From a virus (Duplodnaviria > Heunggongvirae > Uroviricota > Caudoviricetes): a DNA stretch of 7,267 nt. The stretch spans positions 1 through 7,267 of the IMG/VR virus record IMGVR_UViG_3300029745_000183. One strand, given 5' to 3'. Position 1 is the first letter of the stretch. Each line of letters opens with the position of its first letter. Under the pieces are notes generated by a model that was not told the DNA's origin, ran no database searches, and worked only from the letters and a program-made list of their open reading frames with translations. Positions 1 to 7,267 of the stretch are shown here, piece after piece. Both the position numbers and the translations under genes were made by a program.

Positions 1-192
1 GTGACGCGAAAAGATGCCTGGTACTTTGCCAACTATGACCCGCGTATGAAGCGTGAAGGCCTGCATTATGTCGTGGTTGAGCGGGATGAAAAGTACATGG
101 CGAATTTTGACGAGATGGTGCCGGAGTTCATCGAAAAAATGGACGAGGCACTGGCTGAAATTGGTTTTGTATTTGGGGAGCAATGGCGATGA
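1..192 (+). CDS. 3' end (63 codons) of an unidentified protein, probably truncated at the window edge
   Basis: Frame is open from base 1 to TGA at 190-192. The first codon is GTG at the window edge, so the real start is most likely upstream. The stop overlaps the ATG of the next ORF (ATGA at 189-192). No motif I can assign. Confidence 0.5.
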
Positions 193-347
193 CGCATCCT
201 CACGATAATATCCGGGTAGGCGCGATCACTTTCGTCTACTCCATTACAAAGCGAGGCTGGGTATTTCCCGGCCTTTCTGTTATCAGAAATCCACTGAAAG
301 CACAGCGGCTGGCTGAGAAGATAAATAACAAACAGGAGGATATATGA
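189..347 (+). CDS. Hypothetical small protein (52 aa), translationally coupled on both sides
   Basis: ATG at 189 overlaps the upstream stop (ATGA) and its TGA at 345-347 overlaps the ATG of the DGQHR gene (ATGA). GGGGAG sits 9 nt upstream of the ATG. It is below the 60-aa cutoff of the supplied ORF track. No recognisable domain. Confidence 0.3.
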
Positions 348-1408
348 GTCAGGTTGGTAATCATTCATTCGAATTTCCGGCATCGCAAGGTGTACAGGGT
401 GGTACTGTTACACTCTTCCTTACCATACCAGGAAGATCGCTGGCTCGTTTCCTCGCTTCAGATAATTACGGCCATACACTGGAACGCTCTCAGCGAGAAA
501 TTAATCCAAATCGAGTACGAAAATTTTTAAATTATCTCACTAACGCAGACTCAAGAAATGAGCCTTTTATCATTCCCCCTCTCGTAGGTAACTGTGATTC
601 GAATATAGAATTTGTACCGTTTGGCAACACAAATGTTGGTATAGCCAGAATTCCCCTCGACGCCGAAATAAAACTTTTTGATGGTCAACATCGTGCAGCT
701 GGCATTGAGATATTTTGCCGAAGTTCCCCATCAACGCTCATGGTTCCCATGATGCTTACAATGAATCTGCCGCTAAAAACCCGGCAGCAGTTCTTTTCGG
801 ACATAAATAACAACGTTTCTAAGCCATCAGCGACCATCAATATGGCGTATAACGGCCGGGATGATATTGCTCAGGGAATGATATCCTTCCTGACCCAACA
901 TACTGTATTTGCCGATATAACCGATTTTGAACACAACGTAGTGCCATTAAAAAGTAATATGTGGGTGAGTTTCAAGGCACTCACTGATGCAACGTCAAAG
1001 TTCGCTAGGAACGGCAATCAACAACTTGAAATGGGATATATAGAATCTGTCTGGGAGGCATGGATTACACTAACTCAGATTGACTCAATCCGACATGGTG
1101 TACACCACGCTACGTACAAGCGCGATTATATTCAGTTCCATGGAGTAATGATTAACGCTTTCGGTTTTGCGGTTCAACAGATGATGGTTAATCATTCCAT
1201 CGCAGAAATAACTTCTATGATCGAAAAACTATGTGCAACTACCAGCTCTGCAGAAAGAGAGGATTTTTTTCTGATGGATAACTGGGCGGGGATCTGCACG
1301 AAAGCCAGCCAGGAAAAACTATCTGTTATTGCCAATGTGGCAGCGCAGAAAGCAGCAGCAAACAGACTGATACAAGCTTTTACCAAAGGAAGTCTGGAAA
1401 CAACTTAA
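344..1408 (+). CDS. DGQHR-domain protein, DndB-like (ParB/Srx-fold superfamily), 354 aa
   Basis: Contains the exact family-defining motif DGQHR (in IKLFDGQHRAAGIEIF), preceded by FIIPPLVGN. Length is in the DndB range. AGGAGG lies 4 nt upstream of ATG 344. No DndC/D/E-like genes follow in the window. Confidence 0.75.
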   Translation: MSQVGNHSFEFPASQGVQGGTVTLFLTIPGRSLARFLASDNYGHTLERSQREINPNRVRKFLNYLTNADSRNEPFIIPPLVGNCDSNIEFVPFGNTNVGIARIPLDAEIKLFDGQHRAAGIEIFCRSSPSTLMVPMMLTMNLPLKTRQQFFSDINNNVSKPSATINMAYNGRDDIAQGMISFLTQHTVFADITDFEHNVVPLKSNMWVSFKALTDATSKFARNGNQQLEMGYIESVWEAWITLTQIDSIRHGVHHATYKRDYIQFHGVMINAFGFAVQQMMVNHSIAEITSMIEKLCATTSSAEREDFFLMDNWAGICTKASQEKLSVIANVAAQKAAANRLIQAFTKGSLETT

Positions 1409-1485
1409 TGAATCAACATTGTCTCATATCAGCATGCTGTACGGCGTCTTTAAGGAACGGTGAGCATGAAAAACAAAATCATCAT

Positions 1486-1512
1486 GGAGCTACAGGCTCC
1501 TTTTTTATTATT
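1486..1512 (+). terminator. Candidate intrinsic terminator downstream of the DGQHR gene
   Basis: GGAGC-tacag-GCTCC hairpin (5-bp stem) followed directly by TTTTTTATTATT. The stem is short, so this is weak to moderate. Confidence 0.35.
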
Positions 1513-1561
1513 CGCATTCACCCTCAAGCGTATTAACCAACAATTCAGGGATTAATGAAAG

Positions 1562-1780
1562 ATGGCAGACATCATTGATTCAGCATCAGAAATTGAAGAA
1601 TTACAGCGCAACACAGCAATAAAAATGCGCCGCCTGAACCACCAGGCTATATCTGCCACTCATTGTTGTGAGTGTGGCGATCCGATAGATGAACGAAGAC
1701 GCCTGGCCGTTCAGGGTTGTCGGACTTGTGCAAGTTGCCAGGAGGAGATCGAACTTAAGAACAAACAATGGGGACTGTGA
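1562..1780 (+). CDS. TraR/DksA-family C4-type zinc-finger protein (72 aa)
   Basis: Small protein with two Cys pairs (CCEC and CRTCASC) in the spacing typical of the TraR/DksA C4 zinc finger. Homologues are common in lambdoid early regions. Confidence 0.7.
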   Translation: MADIIDSASEIEELQRNTAIKMRRLNHQAISATHCCECGDPIDERRRLAVQGCRTCASCQEEIELKNKQWGL

Positions 1781-1827
1781 TGGCTTCAAAGCAGCAAATT
1801 TCAACATCGTCCAACTGAGGTGTAAAA

Positions 1828-2067
1828 ATGTTCAGAATCATTTTTCCTAACACCTGGTACGTCGACCACCACGGCACTCCCTGCAAAATCCTGCGTTCTA
1901 CCCACAACAAAGTTCACTACATCCGAAAAGGCAGAACATGTATCGCCAGCATGTTCCGCTTTAATCATGACTTTGAACCTGTGAATAAAGCTGATGCAGA
2001 TCGGATAGCAGAAGAGATCGAAACGGCAGAACACATTAAGAAGTTACGTGCCATACGCAGGAAATAG
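1828..2067 (+). CDS. Hypothetical phage protein (79 aa)
   Basis: ORF with a good SD (GAGGTG, 7-nt spacer), co-oriented with the xis-int operon. No motif recognised. Confidence 0.55.
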   Translation: MFRIIFPNTWYVDHHGTPCKILRSTHNKVHYIRKGRTCIASMFRFNHDFEPVNKADADRIAEEIETAEHIKKLRAIRRK

Positions 2068-2206
2068 AAAAATTGATAAATTCAATACTGCATTACTCAG
2101 CATTAAATTTATCTCTATGACCAGTCAAGAGATGTACCTGCCATGAGCTTAATATCATGTCAGATATATCGGTCACAAACTCCCTCAGCAGCTAAGAGGA
2201 GGACAA

Positions 2207-2443
2207 ATGTCTCGACTAATCACTTTACAGGACTGGGCTAAAGAAGAATTTGGGGACTTAGCACCAAGTGAGCGAGTTCTGAAAAAATACGCGCAAGGGA
2301 AAATGATGGCCCCACCCGCTATAAAAGTTGGTCGCTACTGGATGATTGACCGAAATTCCCGTTTTGTAGGAACGCTTGCAGAACCGCAACTCCCAATAAA
2401 CGCAAACCCAAAACTCCAACGGATAATCGCTGATGGCTGCTAG
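2207..2443 (+). CDS. xis: Excisionase (lambda Xis-like winged helix)
   Basis: N-terminal ITLQDW and a PPAIKVGRYW segment resemble lambda/HK022 Xis (LTLQEW ... PPPVKDGREY). AAGAGGAGG RBS. The 3' end overlaps the int start by 11 nt, as in lambda. Confidence 0.85.
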   Translation: MSRLITLQDWAKEEFGDLAPSERVLKKYAQGKMMAPPAIKVGRYWMIDRNSRFVGTLAEPQLPINANPKLQRIIADGC

Positions 2444-3575
2444 ACCCCGATCTCACAAAATCTCTATACCCAATTTATATTGCAAATTAGATAAGCGAAC
2501 CGGAAAGGTATATTGGCAATACAAACATCCACTATCCGGTCGTTTTCATAGCTTAGGAACTGATGAGAATGAAGCAAAACAAGTTGCTACTGAAGCAAAT
2601 ACCATTATTGCTGAACAACGTACCAGACAAATATTAAGCGTCAATGAGCGTCTGGAAAGAATGAAAGGCAGGCGCTCAGACATTACGGTGACAGAATGGC
2701 TTGATAAATATATTTCTATCCAGGAGGACAGGCTGCAACATAATGAACTAAGACCCAACTCCTATCGGCAAAAAGGCAAACCCATTCGTCTTTTCCGTGA
2801 GCATTGTGGAATGCAACACCTCAAGGATATTACCGCACTTGATATTGCCGAAATAATTGATGCTGTAAAGGCTGAAGGTCATAACAGGATGGCGCAAGTC
2901 GTGAGAATGGTGTTGATCGACGTCTTCAAAGAAGCACAACACGCAGGACATGTTCCGCCAGGATTTAACCCTGCGCAGGCAACAAAACAACCGCGAAATC
3001 GAGTAAACCGCCAAAGATTGTCACTGCTCGAATGGCAGGCAATATTTGAAAGCGTAAGCAGACGGCAGCCCTATTTAAAATGCGGCATGCTACTTGCTCT
3101 TGTTACTGGACAACGTTTAGGCGATATCTGCAATTTGAAATTCTCTGATATATGGGACGACATGTTGCACATTACTCAGGAAAAAACCGGTTCAAAACTT
3201 GCTATTCCGCTTAACCTGAAATGCGATGCTCTGAATATTACCCTTCGTGAAGTTATATCTCAGTGCAGGGATGCTGTTGTTAGTAAATATCTGGTCCATT
3301 ACCGTCACACTACCTCTCAAGCAAACAGAGGAGACCAGGTTTCTGCAAATACTCTGACAACGGCTTTTAAAAAGGCCCGGGAAAAATGTGGCATAAAATG
3401 GGAGCAAGGAACTGCGCCCACATTTCATGAGCAGCGATCTCTCTCAGAACGGTTATATCGGGAACAGGGTCTGGATACGCAAAAGTTGTTAGGCCATAAA
3501 TCCAGAAAAATGACCGACCGATACAATGATGATCGTGGTAAAGACTGGATTATCGTAGATATCAAAACAGCATAG
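2433..3575 (+). CDS. int: Tyrosine recombinase, lambda Int family integrase (380 aa)
   Basis: N-terminus RPRSHKISIPNLY and C-terminal TFHEQRSLSERLY...LLGHKS...RYNDDRG match lambda Int (RRRSHERRDLPPNLY; TFHELRSLSARLY...LLGHKSDTM...YRDDRG), including the catalytic R, HxxR and Y positions. Confidence 0.95.
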   Translation: MAARPRSHKISIPNLYCKLDKRTGKVYWQYKHPLSGRFHSLGTDENEAKQVATEANTIIAEQRTRQILSVNERLERMKGRRSDITVTEWLDKYISIQEDRLQHNELRPNSYRQKGKPIRLFREHCGMQHLKDITALDIAEIIDAVKAEGHNRMAQVVRMVLIDVFKEAQHAGHVPPGFNPAQATKQPRNRVNRQRLSLLEWQAIFESVSRRQPYLKCGMLLALVTGQRLGDICNLKFSDIWDDMLHITQEKTGSKLAIPLNLKCDALNITLREVISQCRDAVVSKYLVHYRHTTSQANRGDQVSANTLTTAFKKAREKCGIKWEQGTAPTFHEQRSLSERLYREQGLDTQKLLGHKSRKMTDRYNDDRGKDWIIVDIKTA

Positions 3576-3585
3576 AAAATAGCCA

Positions 3586-3622
3586 GTTTTGGGGAAGGGT
3601 TTTGGGGAAAGTTTTGGGGAAG
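3586..3622. repeat. Three tandem copies of GTTTTGGGGAA(G/A), period 12-13 bp
   Basis: Direct reading: copies start at 3586, 3599 and 3611, immediately 3' of the int stop codon. Confidence 0.6.
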
Positions 3623-3642
3623 ATTTTACATCATCATAAATC

Positions 3643-3675
3643 AACGGGCGTGTTATACGCCCGTTTCAATATTTA
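3643..3675. terminator. Bidirectional intrinsic terminator shared by int (+) and the icd fragment (-)
   Basis: Perfect 9-bp stem AACGGGCGT / ACGCCCGTT with a 5-nt loop, followed by TTTCAATATTT on the + strand and a U-rich run on the minus strand. It lies 23 nt beyond the icd stop codon. Confidence 0.65.
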
Positions 3676-3688
3676 ACACATGTAGTGA

Positions 3689-3853
3689 TTACATATTCTT
3701 GATGATCGCGTCACCAAACTCTGAACATTTCAGCAGTTTAGCGCCTTCCATCAGACGTTCGAAGTCATAGGTTACAGTCTTCGCGTTGATCGCGCCTTCC
3801 ATACCTTTAACAATCAGGTCTGCGGCTTCAGTCCAACCCATGTGGCGCAGCAT
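3689..3853 (-). pseudogene. icd: 3'-terminal fragment of isocitrate dehydrogenase (last 54 codons plus stop), icdC-like
   Basis: Minus-strand translation gives [54 protein letters not shown], which I recognise as the Icd C-terminus. An in-frame TAA two codons upstream ends the homology at about 3853, so no full-length icd is present. Confidence 0.85.
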
Positions 3854-3911
3854 TAGTTAGATGACTAAATCGTAACTATTTGACATAGCAACATAATTTT
3901 ACTAATTTGCA

Positions 3912-3948
3912 TATAACTCATTAGCCCTTAGCATTTCTATAACTCATT
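3912..3948. repeat. Two exact direct copies of TATAACTCATT, 26 bp apart
   Basis: Direct reading: copies at 3912-3922 and 3938-3948, in the AT-rich arm between the icd homology boundary and the mcrA 3' end. Confidence 0.5.
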
Positions 3949-4040
3949 GATTATAAACATGTGTTTTTGAGTTTTGATAACCATTTTTAGCATAAAAATA
4001 GCAGTTAACATTTGCAGAAGTTAAGATCAGAGAAAAATTT

Positions 4041-4054
4041 TACCCTGTAGGGTA
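4041..4054 (-). terminator. Weak candidate terminator downstream of mcrA
   Basis: TACCC-tgta-GGGTA hairpin about 35 nt past the mcrA stop, followed on the minus strand by AAATTTTTCTC. The stem is only 5 bp. Confidence 0.2.
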
Positions 4055-4086
4055 TTACGTCTTAAATGTGACTTTAATAAATAATT

Positions 4087-4920
4087 TTATTTCTGTAATC
4101 GGTTTATATTAACGTAAAGCATCTCGATTAGTTCTTTTGCATTTTTACTATAGTGCAATTCTCTATGGCAATTCGGACAAAGGGCAACACAGTTATCTGT
4201 TGTATCAGCACCACCTGAAGACAGGGGAATTACATGATGCACTTCCAAATATGGGTTTCCATCATTTAAATAAAACGGAGCATTTTTACCACAGTTTTCA
4301 CATATACCTTTACTTTGCTGTAAAATCCAAGCTTTTACCATCGGGTCTCGGACATAAACTTTTTGTAGTCTTTCTACCTCAACTGGTTTCCTAGAGCCCT
4401 CGGGTTGACTCAACGTTTTCTTAATTAATTTACTAACCCTCATATTCAGAAGCGATTCATCATCTGTAGGCTGTGAAAGCTCTGATAGTTCTCCACGTAT
4501 TATAGACGCCCAAAAACTGTCACTATAAATACCTGGAACATTTATCAATATTCGTTTCGTTCTATTGCCGGAAGGAATTTCCTTTCTCCCCGTACGACTA
4601 AAATAAGCCTGATAACCACACATCTTCAAGCGTATATCGCGGGGGCTATTACCAATCAAAGTAAAATATTCACCAGGATGGATTTTTCTTTCATCCAAAG
4701 AATGCATATGTTTTCTGACTGATGATGACGCCAGATATACTACGACTTGGGATACACCAGAATCAACCAACCGTTCAATGATATAATCAAGAGCGATATT
4801 GTAATCTTTGTTTCTGTCACCCGGCCCCCACGACTCAAGGATTAGACCATAAACACCATCCTCTTCACCTATCGAACACTCAGCTTTCAGTTCAATTCCA
4901 TTATTATCAAAAACATGCAT
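4087..4920 (-). CDS. mcrA: McrA, type IV modified-cytosine-specific restriction endonuclease (HNH), 277 aa
   Basis: Protein begins MHVFDNNGIELKAECSIGEEDGVYGLILESWGPGDRNKDY and ends with the HNH region CENCG...HHVIP...CVALCPNCHRELH. Length and sequence match my recollection of E. coli McrA, which is encoded on e14 next to pin. Confidence 0.93.
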   Translation of the reverse strand: MHVFDNNGIELKAECSIGEEDGVYGLILESWGPGDRNKDYNIALDYIIERLVDSGVSQVVVYLASSSVRKHMHSLDERKIHPGEYFTLIGNSPRDIRLKMCGYQAYFSRTGRKEIPSGNRTKRILINVPGIYSDSFWASIIRGELSELSQPTDDESLLNMRVSKLIKKTLSQPEGSRKPVEVERLQKVYVRDPMVKAWILQQSKGICENCGKNAPFYLNDGNPYLEVHHVIPLSSGGADTTDNCVALCPNCHRELHYSKNAKELIEMLYVNINRLQK

Positions 4921-5026
4921 AATATTAATCTTTAATCAATTTTTCACGACAATACTACTTTTATTGATAAAATTGCAACAAGTTGCTGTTGTTTTACTTT
5001 CTTTTGTACACAAAGTGTCTTTAACT

Positions 5027-5581
5027 TTATTTATCCCCTGCAGGAAACCTCTTATACAAAGTTGACACACCAACATCATAGATAATCGCCACCTTCTGGC
5101 GAGGAACTCCTGATGCAATTAATCGTCCGGCCTGTTCCCATTGTTCTGGTGTAAGTTTGGGACGACGTCCACCAATTCGTCCCTGTGCGCGAGCAGCTTC
5201 CAGTCCAGCTTTTGTTCTTTCAACAATCAGTTCACGCTCCATTTCAGCCAGGGCACCCATCACATGAAAGAAAAAGCGCCCCATTGGGGTACTGGTATCA
5301 ATTGAATCCGTCAGACTACGAAAGTTGATGCCTCGTTCGCGCAACTCCTCCACCAGCACGACAAGATGCCGCATACTGCGCCCCAGTCGGTCCAGTTTCC
5401 AGACCACCAGCGTATCACCTGCCGATAATGTCCTGAGCAGTTTTTTCAGTCCCGGCCTTTCGGACTTTGTACCGCTTATCTTGTCTTCAAAAATCAGCTC
5501 GCATCCTGCACAGTTCAGCGCATTACGTTGTAGATCTGTGTTCTGGTCATTTGTTGACACACGTACATAGCCAATAAGCAT
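5027..5581 (-). CDS. pin: Pin DNA invertase, serine recombinase of the Gin/Hin/Pin family (184 aa)
   Basis: From the internal Met the protein reads MLIGYVRVSTNDQNTDLQRNAL..., the canonical invertase N-terminus with catalytic Ser in VRVSTNDQ, and has a C-terminal HTH. GGGAG RBS 8 nt upstream of ATG at 5581. The track ORF start at 5617 is an in-frame upstream extension. Confidence 0.93.
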   Translation of the reverse strand: MLIGYVRVSTNDQNTDLQRNALNCAGCELIFEDKISGTKSERPGLKKLLRTLSAGDTLVVWKLDRLGRSMRHLVVLVEELRERGINFRSLTDSIDTSTPMGRFFFHVMGALAEMERELIVERTKAGLEAARAQGRIGGRRPKLTPEQWEQAGRLIASGVPRQKVAIIYDVGVSTLYKRFPAGDK

Positions 5582-5607
5582 GGTAGATCTCCCTGACAAA
5601 AGCAGGA

Positions 5608-6063
5608 ATGATGCCATTTGCTCGTTATTTCTGCATTTTCATAAACGTTGGTTTGGGAGAAGCGGCAAAACGAAATGTGGGGACAGGGGAAAATCAGATA
5701 CCGGACATGGCCTCTTTTGCCAGTGGTGATGGATGGATGAAATTACCCAACGGGAAAATCCTGCAATATGGTCGTGGTGCGATTACGCCGACATTATCGA
5801 CGCAAACAATGAGAATTACATTCAGCATCCCTTTTCCTAAAGAAGTGGACTGCGCCATGCTTACCCATTCTGGTGATGGTGGTGCGCCTTTAGGCGCTGG
5901 ACGGGGATTCGTGATGACTGCAGAAGGTCCAACACTAACCGGTTTTAATTCCGCTTACAGAACTGCATCAACCAGCTCCACAGTAACCTCTATAACTGTA
6001 TTGACGATTTGCAGTGATTGCAGGACGTTACGGGTAGCCTCATCGTTCTGTGGTTTCTGTTAA
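5608..6063 (+). pseudogene. Orphan side-tail-fibre C-terminal fragment (stfE-like), the variable cassette of the Pin inversion module
   Basis: Divergent from pin and reads through the crossover site. The segment [19 protein letters not shown] resembles tail-fibre C-terminal domains. No fibre N-terminal region, no tfa gene, and a Cys-rich, non-protein-like tail ([17 protein letters not shown]). ATG 5608 is probably not a genuine start. Confidence 0.4.
5636..5661. other. Pin/Gin/Hin-type recombination crossover site (pix-like), 26 bp
   Basis: TTTTCATAAACG-TT-GGTTTGGGAGAA: two 12-bp half-sites around a 2-bp core. Reverse complement TTCTCCCAAACC-AA-CGTTTATGAAAA resembles hixL TTCTTGAAAACC-AA-GGTTTTTGATAA. 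Sits 55 bp upstream of the pin start, the expected position. Confidence 0.55.
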
Positions 6064-6068
6064 TCGAT

Positions 6069-6269
6069 TTATCCATTAGATTTTTCATAAAGCTCAGGTT
6101 TAAATGGCAACCGTCCGCAAGTTCTATATGCAGCTTCTGCTGCACGTCCTTTTGGAATTAACTGGCCCGGACGGTTTCGCCACTGATAAACGGCTTCAGT
6201 TGTTATGCCGAAAAAAGCAGCAACTTTCTCAATACTGCCGAAGTAGCTTTCGATATCGTCAGTTGTCAT
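6069..6269 (-). CDS. Cro-like HTH regulator (YdaS/Cro family), 66 aa
   Basis: Small HTH protein (VAAFFGITTEAVYQWRN...IPKGRAAEAAYRTCGRLPFKPELY) transcribed divergently from the CI-like repressor. GGAGGG RBS. Confidence 0.8.
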   Translation of the reverse strand: MTTDDIESYFGSIEKVAAFFGITTEAVYQWRNRPGQLIPKGRAAEAAYRTCGRLPFKPELYEKSNG

Positions 6270-6366
6270 ACGCCCTCCAAACTAAGTTTTATTAGATGCT
6301 AATTACAAATCTATCTTTGGTCAATAAAAACTAAGATTACTTAGCAATTCAAGAAATGGTGCTCCT
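6270..6366. promoter_or_regulatory. Divergent promoter/operator region between the cro-like and cI-like genes
   Basis: 97-bp AT-rich intergenic region. Two inverted repeats of form CTAAG-N4-(C/A)TTAG at 6282-6295 and 6331-6344. Minus-strand sigma70-like elements TTGACC (6319-6324) and TAGCAT (6296-6301) with a 17-bp spacer, a candidate pR for the cro-like gene. Confidence 0.55.
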
Positions 6367-6993
6367 ATGGAAACGGTTGGTCAGCGTATAAAAGCTCTGA
6401 GAAGAGTTACCGGAACGTCCCAGAAAGAATTGGGTAAATTTTGTGGAGTAAGCGACGTTGCTGTGGGGTACTGGGAGAAAGACATCAATACCCCTGGTGG
6501 GGAGGCACTTTCGAAATTAGCGAAGTTCTTCAATACGTCAATAGATTACATTCTTTATGGTGCTGAGTTTGAAGGCAAACTCGTCACAAACATGCGCAGA
6601 GTTCCTGTAATATCGTGGGTTCAGGCTGGGCAGTTTACTGAGTGCAGGGCAGCAGAAGTGTTTAGTGAAGTGGACAAGTGGGTAGATACATCATTAAAGA
6701 TTGGTGATAACTCATTTGCATTAGAGGTTAAAGGTGACTCCATGACTAACCCTAATGGCCTCCCAACAATACCAGAAGGCGCAACAGTGATTGTAGATCC
6801 AGATGCAGAACCTCGTCATGGAAAAATAGTCATCGCTCGACTTGATGGAACAAACGAAGCTACAGTAAAAAAATTAGTCATCGATGGCCCTCAAAAGTTT
6901 TTAGTGCCATTAAATCCTCGGTATCCCAACATCCCTATCAATGGTAATTGCCTTATCATTGGTGTAGTCAAAGGAGTTCAATACGAACTCTAA
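6367..6993 (+). CDS. CI-like prophage repressor: N-terminal XRE HTH plus C-terminal S24 (LexA-like) autopeptidase domain, 208 aa
   Basis: HTH at the N-terminus (QKELGKFCGVSDVAVGYWE). Ala-Gly cleavage-site candidate in WVQAGQF. Catalytic Ser in KGDSM and Lys in ATVKKL, as in LexA and lambda CI. Confidence 0.88.
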   Translation: METVGQRIKALRRVTGTSQKELGKFCGVSDVAVGYWEKDINTPGGEALSKLAKFFNTSIDYILYGAEFEGKLVTNMRRVPVISWVQAGQFTECRAAEVFSEVDKWVDTSLKIGDNSFALEVKGDSMTNPNGLPTIPEGATVIVDPDAEPRHGKIVIARLDGTNEATVKKLVIDGPQKFLVPLNPRYPNIPINGNCLIIGVVKGVQYEL

Positions 6994-7058
6994 GACCTCT
7001 CTTCTCTAACTAAGGCACCGAACTAAGAAAAGTTTGGTGTTTTCTCTTGCCATAATAA

Positions 7059-7072
7059 CTAAGTTAAGTTAG
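7059..7072. promoter_or_regulatory. Third operator-like inverted repeat CTAAG-ttaa-GTTAG downstream of the repressor gene
   Basis: Same half-site architecture as the two sites in the cro-cI intergenic region. Lies in a 247-bp untranslated region upstream of the next + strand gene, where a pL/oL equivalent would be expected. Confidence 0.3.
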
Positions 7073-7240
7073 ATTTTATATCAAAGATAACGAACAGGCA
7101 GGACGCCCACGAAGTAGCCGCCTGGGGCATATGAAGTCCAGGATGATTCGTTAGCAACAAAAAAGCGCCCTACAGGACGCTTAGCTCTTTAACAATCTGG
7201 TCCCCATCAACAAGTAACTGATAACTTGAGGAGGTGTGAA

Positions 7241-7267
7241 ATGCACAAAACAGAACCAAAAATCGTC
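7241..7267 (+). CDS. 5' end of an unidentified gene (first 9 codons, MHKTEPKIV), truncated by the window end
   Basis: ATG at 7241 preceded by a strong GAGGAGG SD with a 6-nt spacer. Co-oriented with the repressor gene. Confidence 0.4.

Follow-up and report, generated by a model that had tools for sequence, protein, structure and literature searches.

Within the attachment (att) region of phage lambda, arm-type sites are bound by the N-terminal domain of the integrase (Int) and are bridged to the core with the help of IHF, Xis, and Fis (PMC4880445). In a search with the lambda arm consensus, P'1, P'2, and P'3 were recovered at 27785-27815; the three are direct sites in tandem and overlap the stop codon of int at 27812-27814. 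For coliphage 21, the record OL657228.1 annotates a feature at 27563-27599 as an attP integration site with three subsites, P1P2P3, and gives their consensus as YYTTCCCCAAAA. The same record annotates a hairpin as a terminator, an icd fragment as a pseudogene, and xis as an excisionase; the announcement of the phage 21 genome does not discuss attP. A 1997 study by Wang and colleagues reportedly puts the minimal attP needed for integration in vitro at 366-418 bp, and the outermost repeated dodecamers, proposed there as arm recognition sites, reportedly lie within its outer limits.

The DNA analysed here (the window, meaning the whole stretch of 7267 nt) contains three dodecamers of this type downstream of an int gene, and its features are collected in Table 1. 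Residues 1-71 of the encoded Int form an arm-DNA-binding domain (Pfam Arm-DNA-bind_1 PF09003, E 1.8e-28), and the catalytic part matches Pfam Phage_integrase PF00589. The protein can be aligned over its full length with the crystal and cryo-EM structures of lambda Int (1z1b and 5j0n), the alignment with lambda Int starting from residue 5. Elsewhere in the window, the early-left region of this phage-21-type prophage carries a solitary gene at 344-1408 (+) for a DndB/DGQHR-domain protein (Pfam PF14072, E 3.8e-46; PADLOC DndB, E 4.3e-37). No other dnd genes were found in the window, and the DndB-type gene may be defence cargo.

Table 1. Positions of the features discussed in the text, with the Int signatures that accompany each class of repeat
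Feature	Position	Strand	Basis or association
xis, excisionase, 78 aa	2207-2443	+	Pfam Exc PF07825; phage 21 annotation; overlaps int start
int, phage-21-type heterobivalent tyrosine integrase, 380 aa	2433-3575	+	PF09003, PF00589, phage 21 identity
Probable arm-type repeat 1, GTTTTGGGGAAG	3586-3597	+	Nearest int stop; inside phage 21 feature P1P2P3
Probable arm-type repeat 2, GTTTTGGGGAAA	3599-3610	+	Inside phage 21 feature P1P2P3
Probable arm-type repeat 3, GTTTTGGGGAAG	3611-3622	+	Nearest icd terminator and core
Host-homologous att segment: icd 3' end and terminator	3636-3853	-	Homology limits, Iso_dh C-terminus, phage 21/e14 alignment
icd terminator hairpin, 9-bp stem, 5-nt loop	3643-3665	-	Terminator scan; phage 21 annotation
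Two exact TATAACTCATT copies, 26 nt apart	3912-3922, 3938-3948	+	e14 arm; second repeat family of the preliminary description
Probable e14-type arm site GTTTTGATAACC	3971-3982	+	e14 mcrA-side arm, 117 nt past icd-homology boundary
Int signature NLYxKLDKR	Int residues 14-24		Repeat class TTTTGGGG
Int signature NLYPxxSRK	Int residues 14-24		Repeat class TTTTGATAA
Int signature GLSCYxDART	Int residues 14-24		Repeat class TTTTGCAG
Int signature NLFCFxDPRT	Int residues 14-24		Repeat class TTTTACTG

The two sides of the window have different origins. Positions 2400-3855, spanning xis, int, and att, share 98.5% nucleotide identity with coliphage 21 and with about 28 related phage records. Past 3855 the phage 21 match ends, and the mcrA end of e14 is matched at 97%; the junction lies at 3853/3854, with window 3854-7267 as the e14 side. 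In the direction of icd, an e14 remnant (pin, mcrA) comes first, followed by the e14 arm, the icd fragment (icd') with its terminator, the three repeats in the P' arm of phage 21, and the int and xis genes of a prophage of the phage 21 type. Several strains have an ordinary phage-21-type attL to which window 1-3853 is 100% identical. The junction in one piece occurs in only four of 5426 complete E. coli genomes. From these matches, the window reads as a rare hybrid att junction between tandem phage 21 and e14 prophages. The preliminary description had called the element e14-like; since 1-3853 is an ordinary phage-21-type attL and the sequence beyond 3855 is that of e14, the element is instead phage-21-type, with e14 DNA only beyond the icd' fragment, and the window is to be read as a tandem phage 21/e14 junction.

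Between the repeats and this junction lies a segment shared with the host. An ORF at 3689-3853 on the minus strand corresponds to the last 54 codons of isocitrate dehydrogenase, matching the Iso_dh C-terminus, and in 5415 of 5426 complete E. coli genomes window 3636-3690 has a match beside icd or beside the icd fragment displaced by e14. The terminator at 3643-3665 is predicted on the minus (icd) strand only, and the hairpin is carried by the phage to restore the 3' end of icd. As the repeats end at 3622 and host homology begins at 3636, the repeats are in phage-specific DNA outside the host-homologous segment, and the core or crossover site must be within that segment. Inspection of icd' by eye for the core revealed no more than one imperfect inverted repeat (CTGCGGC...GGCGCAG, 3820-3850), whose halves are separated by a 17-nt spacer. 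Over the whole window the IHF consensus is not in excess, with 11 sites compared with 12.2 expected, and none of them falls in the stretch from the repeats to the terminator. A promoter scan found no promoter-like site inside the repeats.

The repeats themselves are 12 nt long, take the form GTTTTGGGGAA(G/A), and are present three times with start-to-start spacings of 13 and then 12 nt. The stop codon of int (TAG) occupies 3573-3575, leaving a gap of exactly 10 nt before the first repeat, and the array ends just ahead of the icd terminator hairpin. Three phased copies at this distance from int had been noticed in the preliminary description, along with four closely spaced G-runs on the int strand, and the coordinates bear out both observations: the runs are GGGG at 3591-3594, GGG at 3597-3599, GGGG at 3604-3607, and GGGG at 3616-3619. 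Tandem Repeats Finder, applied to the whole 7267-nt window, returned a single array at 3585-3627 with a period of 13, 3.4 copies, and a score of 65. Allowing up to two mismatches, the dodecamer occurs four times in the window compared with 0.64 expected, and three of the four occurrences are the array.

The phage 21 feature in OL657228.1 covers the same 37 bp as the three repeats, and the dodecamers are identical in the alignment. The repeats are thus already known and annotated attP sites of phage 21, and a standard part of a lambda-like att. The two attachment sites are alike in repeat sequence, in the place of the repeats after the int stop, in the terminator, and in the icd' fragment. In the phage 21 locus of our collection (L001), the three copies are at 2687-2723 and a fourth, ATTTTGGGGAAAG, is at 3072-3084, in the same orientation and 117 nt past the other end of the icd homology. 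The far arm is where the window differs: as this arm belongs to e14, it has a site of the e14 type in place of the fourth dodecamer of phage 21. An inverted dodecamer resembling lambda P2 was not found at up to three mismatches in the far arm of phage 21 (L001 2956-3072), and its set of arm sites may be 3 + 1 instead of the 3 + 2 of lambda. The 115 bp that bear the repeats are present in 1679 of 5426 complete E. coli genomes (∼31%).

Comparison with lambda places these dodecamers in a familiar setting. In both systems the arm nearest int has three direct sites in tandem by the int stop codon, the first repeat of the window being by position the counterpart of lambda P'3, and the N-terminal domain that recognizes the lambda sites has a homologue in the Int of the window (PF09003). 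Phage 21 also resembles lambda in having a same-orientation copy near the outer end of the other arm, where lambda has P1; no inverted copy like P2 was found in it, and lambda has five arm sites in all. The sequences and dimensions differ. The lambda site on the int sense strand is ATAGTGACT compared with GTTTTGGGGAAG in the window, spacing is 10-11 nt in lambda and 12-13 nt here, and the window sites are much further from the core, with the icd 3' end and terminator (∼218 bp) in between. Relative to lambda, the N-terminal domain of the window Int has a 5-residue insertion in its variable hairpin.

Taken with the phage 21 annotation, these data make it very probable that the three dodecamers are the P'-arm, Int arm-type binding sites of the phage 21 att and that they work as DNA and not as RNA. 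The preliminary description had listed Int arm-type sites in an att arm among several candidate roles, and this one is now strongly supported. By analogy with lambda, the Int encoded just upstream would contact each dodecamer through its small N-terminal domain for arm binding, while the catalytic part of the same Int would bind the core inside the icd-homologous segment. Int bridges of this kind, together with host bending proteins, would fold the att arms into an intasome that performs integration and excision, as in lambda. We infer both the physical binding of the dodecamers by the Int N-terminal domain and a division of the three sites between integration and excision.

The e14 element of E. 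coli K-12 is informative about whether such repeats go with int or with att. Its attL (L252 2625-2657) has three copies of TTTTGATAA beside the icd terminator, with spacings of 13 and 11; the array reads GGGGTTTTGATAACTTTTTTTGATAAAATTTTGATAACC and is 102 nt from the icd stop. The gene intE is 3.2 kb away from this triple repeat, with ymfD, ymfE, and lit between them, and cargo is inserted between int and its arm sites in e14. Since the e14 triple stays by the icd terminator with intE 3.2 kb off, the repeats belong to att and not to a 3' untranslated region of int. The att sites of e14 and of the window have in common the icd target, the number of repeats, their spacing (13 and then 11-12 nt), and a distance of 102 nt to the icd stop, and the far-arm copy of e14 is at the same aligned position as that of phage 21. 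They differ in the variable half of the repeat (GATAAC in e14, GGGGAA in the window), in the Int signature (NLYPLYSRKVN compared with NLYCKLDKRTG), and in the cargo genes that separate the e14 repeats from intE. Copies of the motif are found in both arms of attP, in a 3 + 1 arrangement, in phage 21, in e14 (three at attL and one at attR in K-12), and in the Klebsiella phage Kp4865-4.

The wider distribution of the repeats was assessed in 80 genome loci from many enterobacterial genera, which encode Int proteins with 51-99% identity to that of the window. Where icd is next to int, there are almost always three repeats, spaced by 13 and then 11-12 nt, and the first is 101-103 nt from the icd stop. 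The preliminary description had proposed repeat number and phase in relatives as a check, and both are kept, together with the distance to icd. The sequence of the repeat is not constant and falls into four classes, GTTTTGGGGAAG, GTTTTGATAAC, GTTTTGCAGAAG, and ATTTTACTGAG. Among the 59 non-redundant loci that have both repeats and an Int signature, IMG/VR loci included, the class of the repeat agrees with the signature in 58. Most IMG/VR contigs stop at the int stop codon, so that few are informative downstream, and those that are informative agree with the genome loci. The copy in the far arm changes class too: e14 has GTTTTGATAACC there, and Kp4865-4, of the GATAA class, has three copies of TTTTGATAA beside int and one ∼119 nt from the other end of its record. 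A GCAG-class triple repeat was also seen after int at loci with a target gene other than icd (L080, L082, L095, L097, L105, L117, and others). Arm sites follow the class of the Int N-terminal domain, whatever the integration site.

At the sole discordant locus (L031), int is both a chimera and a pseudogene, interrupted by an in-frame stop. The locus is one of two tandem elements in Providencia alcalifaciens BIGb0506, 13 kb apart, the other being L032. Its int combines a GGGG-class N-terminal part, which matches the neighbouring L032, with a GATAA-class C-terminal end and repeats, and the chimera looks like the product of recombination between neighbouring int genes.

Other explanations of the array have to be weighed against these observations. 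One alternative, suggested by the four G-runs on the int sense strand, is that the repeats exert an effect through the int transcript, either by forming a G-quadruplex in the RNA or by controlling mRNA stability or translation as a retroregulator similar to sib. When G-quadruplex energies are included, the minimum-energy fold from ViennaRNA contains a quadruplex of three tetrads and is better than the plain fold by 0.9 kcal/mol. The canonical rule (four G-runs of at least three, loops of up to 7 nt) fails, however, the sole match being at 3591-3619 with loops of up to 12 nt, and in sister clades the G-runs are swapped for GATAAC, GCAGAAG, or ACTGAG while number, spacing, and position are kept. 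The quadruplex prediction suggested in the preliminary description thus yields only a long-loop match to G-runs that are not conserved. The 65-nt region also folds worse than its shuffles, with a minimum free energy of -5.9 kcal/mol compared with a mean of -8.19 kcal/mol (z +1.03), and no Rfam family was matched above its gathering threshold. A sub-threshold match to the tpke11 sRNA at 3620-3684 (-), with 22.1 bits compared with a gathering value of 43 and E 0.036, extends over the terminator hairpin and is probably a chance match driven by that hairpin. A paper on the svsR/co293 sRNA deals with the cI region, a different locus.

The sib element of lambda is an RNase III hairpin that lies across att from int and is detached from int by integration. 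Both sib and the repeats are downstream of int on the int transcript strand, but the repeats lack a stable fold, lie int-proximal to the crossover, and in e14 accompany att. An element of the sib type must be parted from int by integration, whereas the repeats, placed between the int gene and the host-homologous segment, remain beside int in phage and prophage alike and were seen there in each lysogen examined; the e14 equivalents, moreover, are beside att and 3.2 kb from intE with three genes between. The analogy with sib drawn in the preliminary description is not supported, an action on the transcript is most unlikely, and the RNA and G-quadruplex idea can be dropped.

Sites for Xis, or for another accessory protein in place of Int, are a closer competitor that is nevertheless improbable. 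The repeats are tandem and direct, like the lambda X1, X1.5, and X2 sites, and the grouping of the Xis proteins of the relatives into four classes parallels that of the repeats. Covariation alone cannot separate Int from Xis, because xis and int are co-inherited. The arrangement of the sites is more telling: in lambda, Xis sites occur only in the int-distal P arm, while the int-proximal P' arm has three Int sites (PMC4880445), and one additional copy, placed at the outer edge of the opposite arm, is in keeping with Int arm sites and not with an Xis filament. The outermost dodecamers of phage 21 are also reported by Wang and colleagues to delimit the attP needed for integration in vitro. Integration in vitro does not need Xis, so that dodecamers which reportedly delimit attP for this reaction fit Int more than Xis. 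The case for Int over Xis thus comes from the lambda-like position, the copy in the other arm, and these reported integration data. The number of copies does vary, with two in E. coli 2012C-4227 (L085 711-735) and in Proteus hauseri (L015) and four in Proteus penneri (L019), as might be expected if slippage during replication of an intergenic spacer had left an array without function. That reading is contradicted by the way in which a triple array recurs, at constant spacing and distance to icd, across enterobacterial genera and 51-99% Int identity, and by class switches matched to the Int N-terminal domain; slippage is scarcely credible as the source of the array.

With the dodecamers read as Int arm-type sites, the relatives point towards a possible recognition code. 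Each repeat may be made up of TTTTG, constant except for TTTTA in one class, and then a variable block of 4-5 nt. This block may be matched to Int residues ∼17-24, which belong to the first beta-hairpin of the domain that binds the arms. The hybrid att of the window, with a P' arm of the phage 21 type and a P arm of the e14 type, could hinder clean excision of either neighbour and, if so, tandem prophages at icd would be more readily fixed. An arm-site recognition code of icd integrases, combined with mismatched hybrid arms that hinder excision and help to fix tandem prophages, is a tentative proposal, to which we give somewhat less than an even chance. Neither the code nor the effect of mismatched arms is in the annotation examined, and both are extensions of known lambda biology. 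The repeats themselves have little discovery value, being textbook-type arm sites of a well-studied lambdoid phage that are annotated already, and the cross-clade pattern of recognition is a tidy but unsurprising by-product. Even so, four classes of repeats and four signatures of the Int N-terminal domain provide a ready set for swaps of arm specificity in heterobivalent integrases.

On the other side of the junction, the e14 site GTTTTGATAACC is aligned column for column with phage 21 ATTTTGGGGAAAG, and its motif is the one present three times at e14 attL in K-12. A perfect match to the IHF consensus, AATCAATGAGTTA, is present on the minus strand at 3940-3952 and overlaps the second copy of TATAACTCATT; the TATAACTCATT copies may be candidate sites for an e14 accessory protein (IHF or Xis). 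The preliminary description had held that different factors probably bind on the two sides of the att boundary, reasoning from the dissimilarity of the two repeat families. The idea survives in spirit, on a ground that the letters alone could not reveal: the other arm is that of e14 and has its own site, GTTTTGATAACC.

The e14 remnant beyond this arm contains mcrA (4087-4920), encoding a type IV restriction enzyme, pin (5027-5617), and a tail-fibre fragment (5608-6063). A gene for an S24/HTH repressor (6367-6993) follows within ∼300 nt of the tail-fibre fragment, and the make-up of the remnant (4087-6993) suggests a large internal deletion relative to the e14 of K-12.
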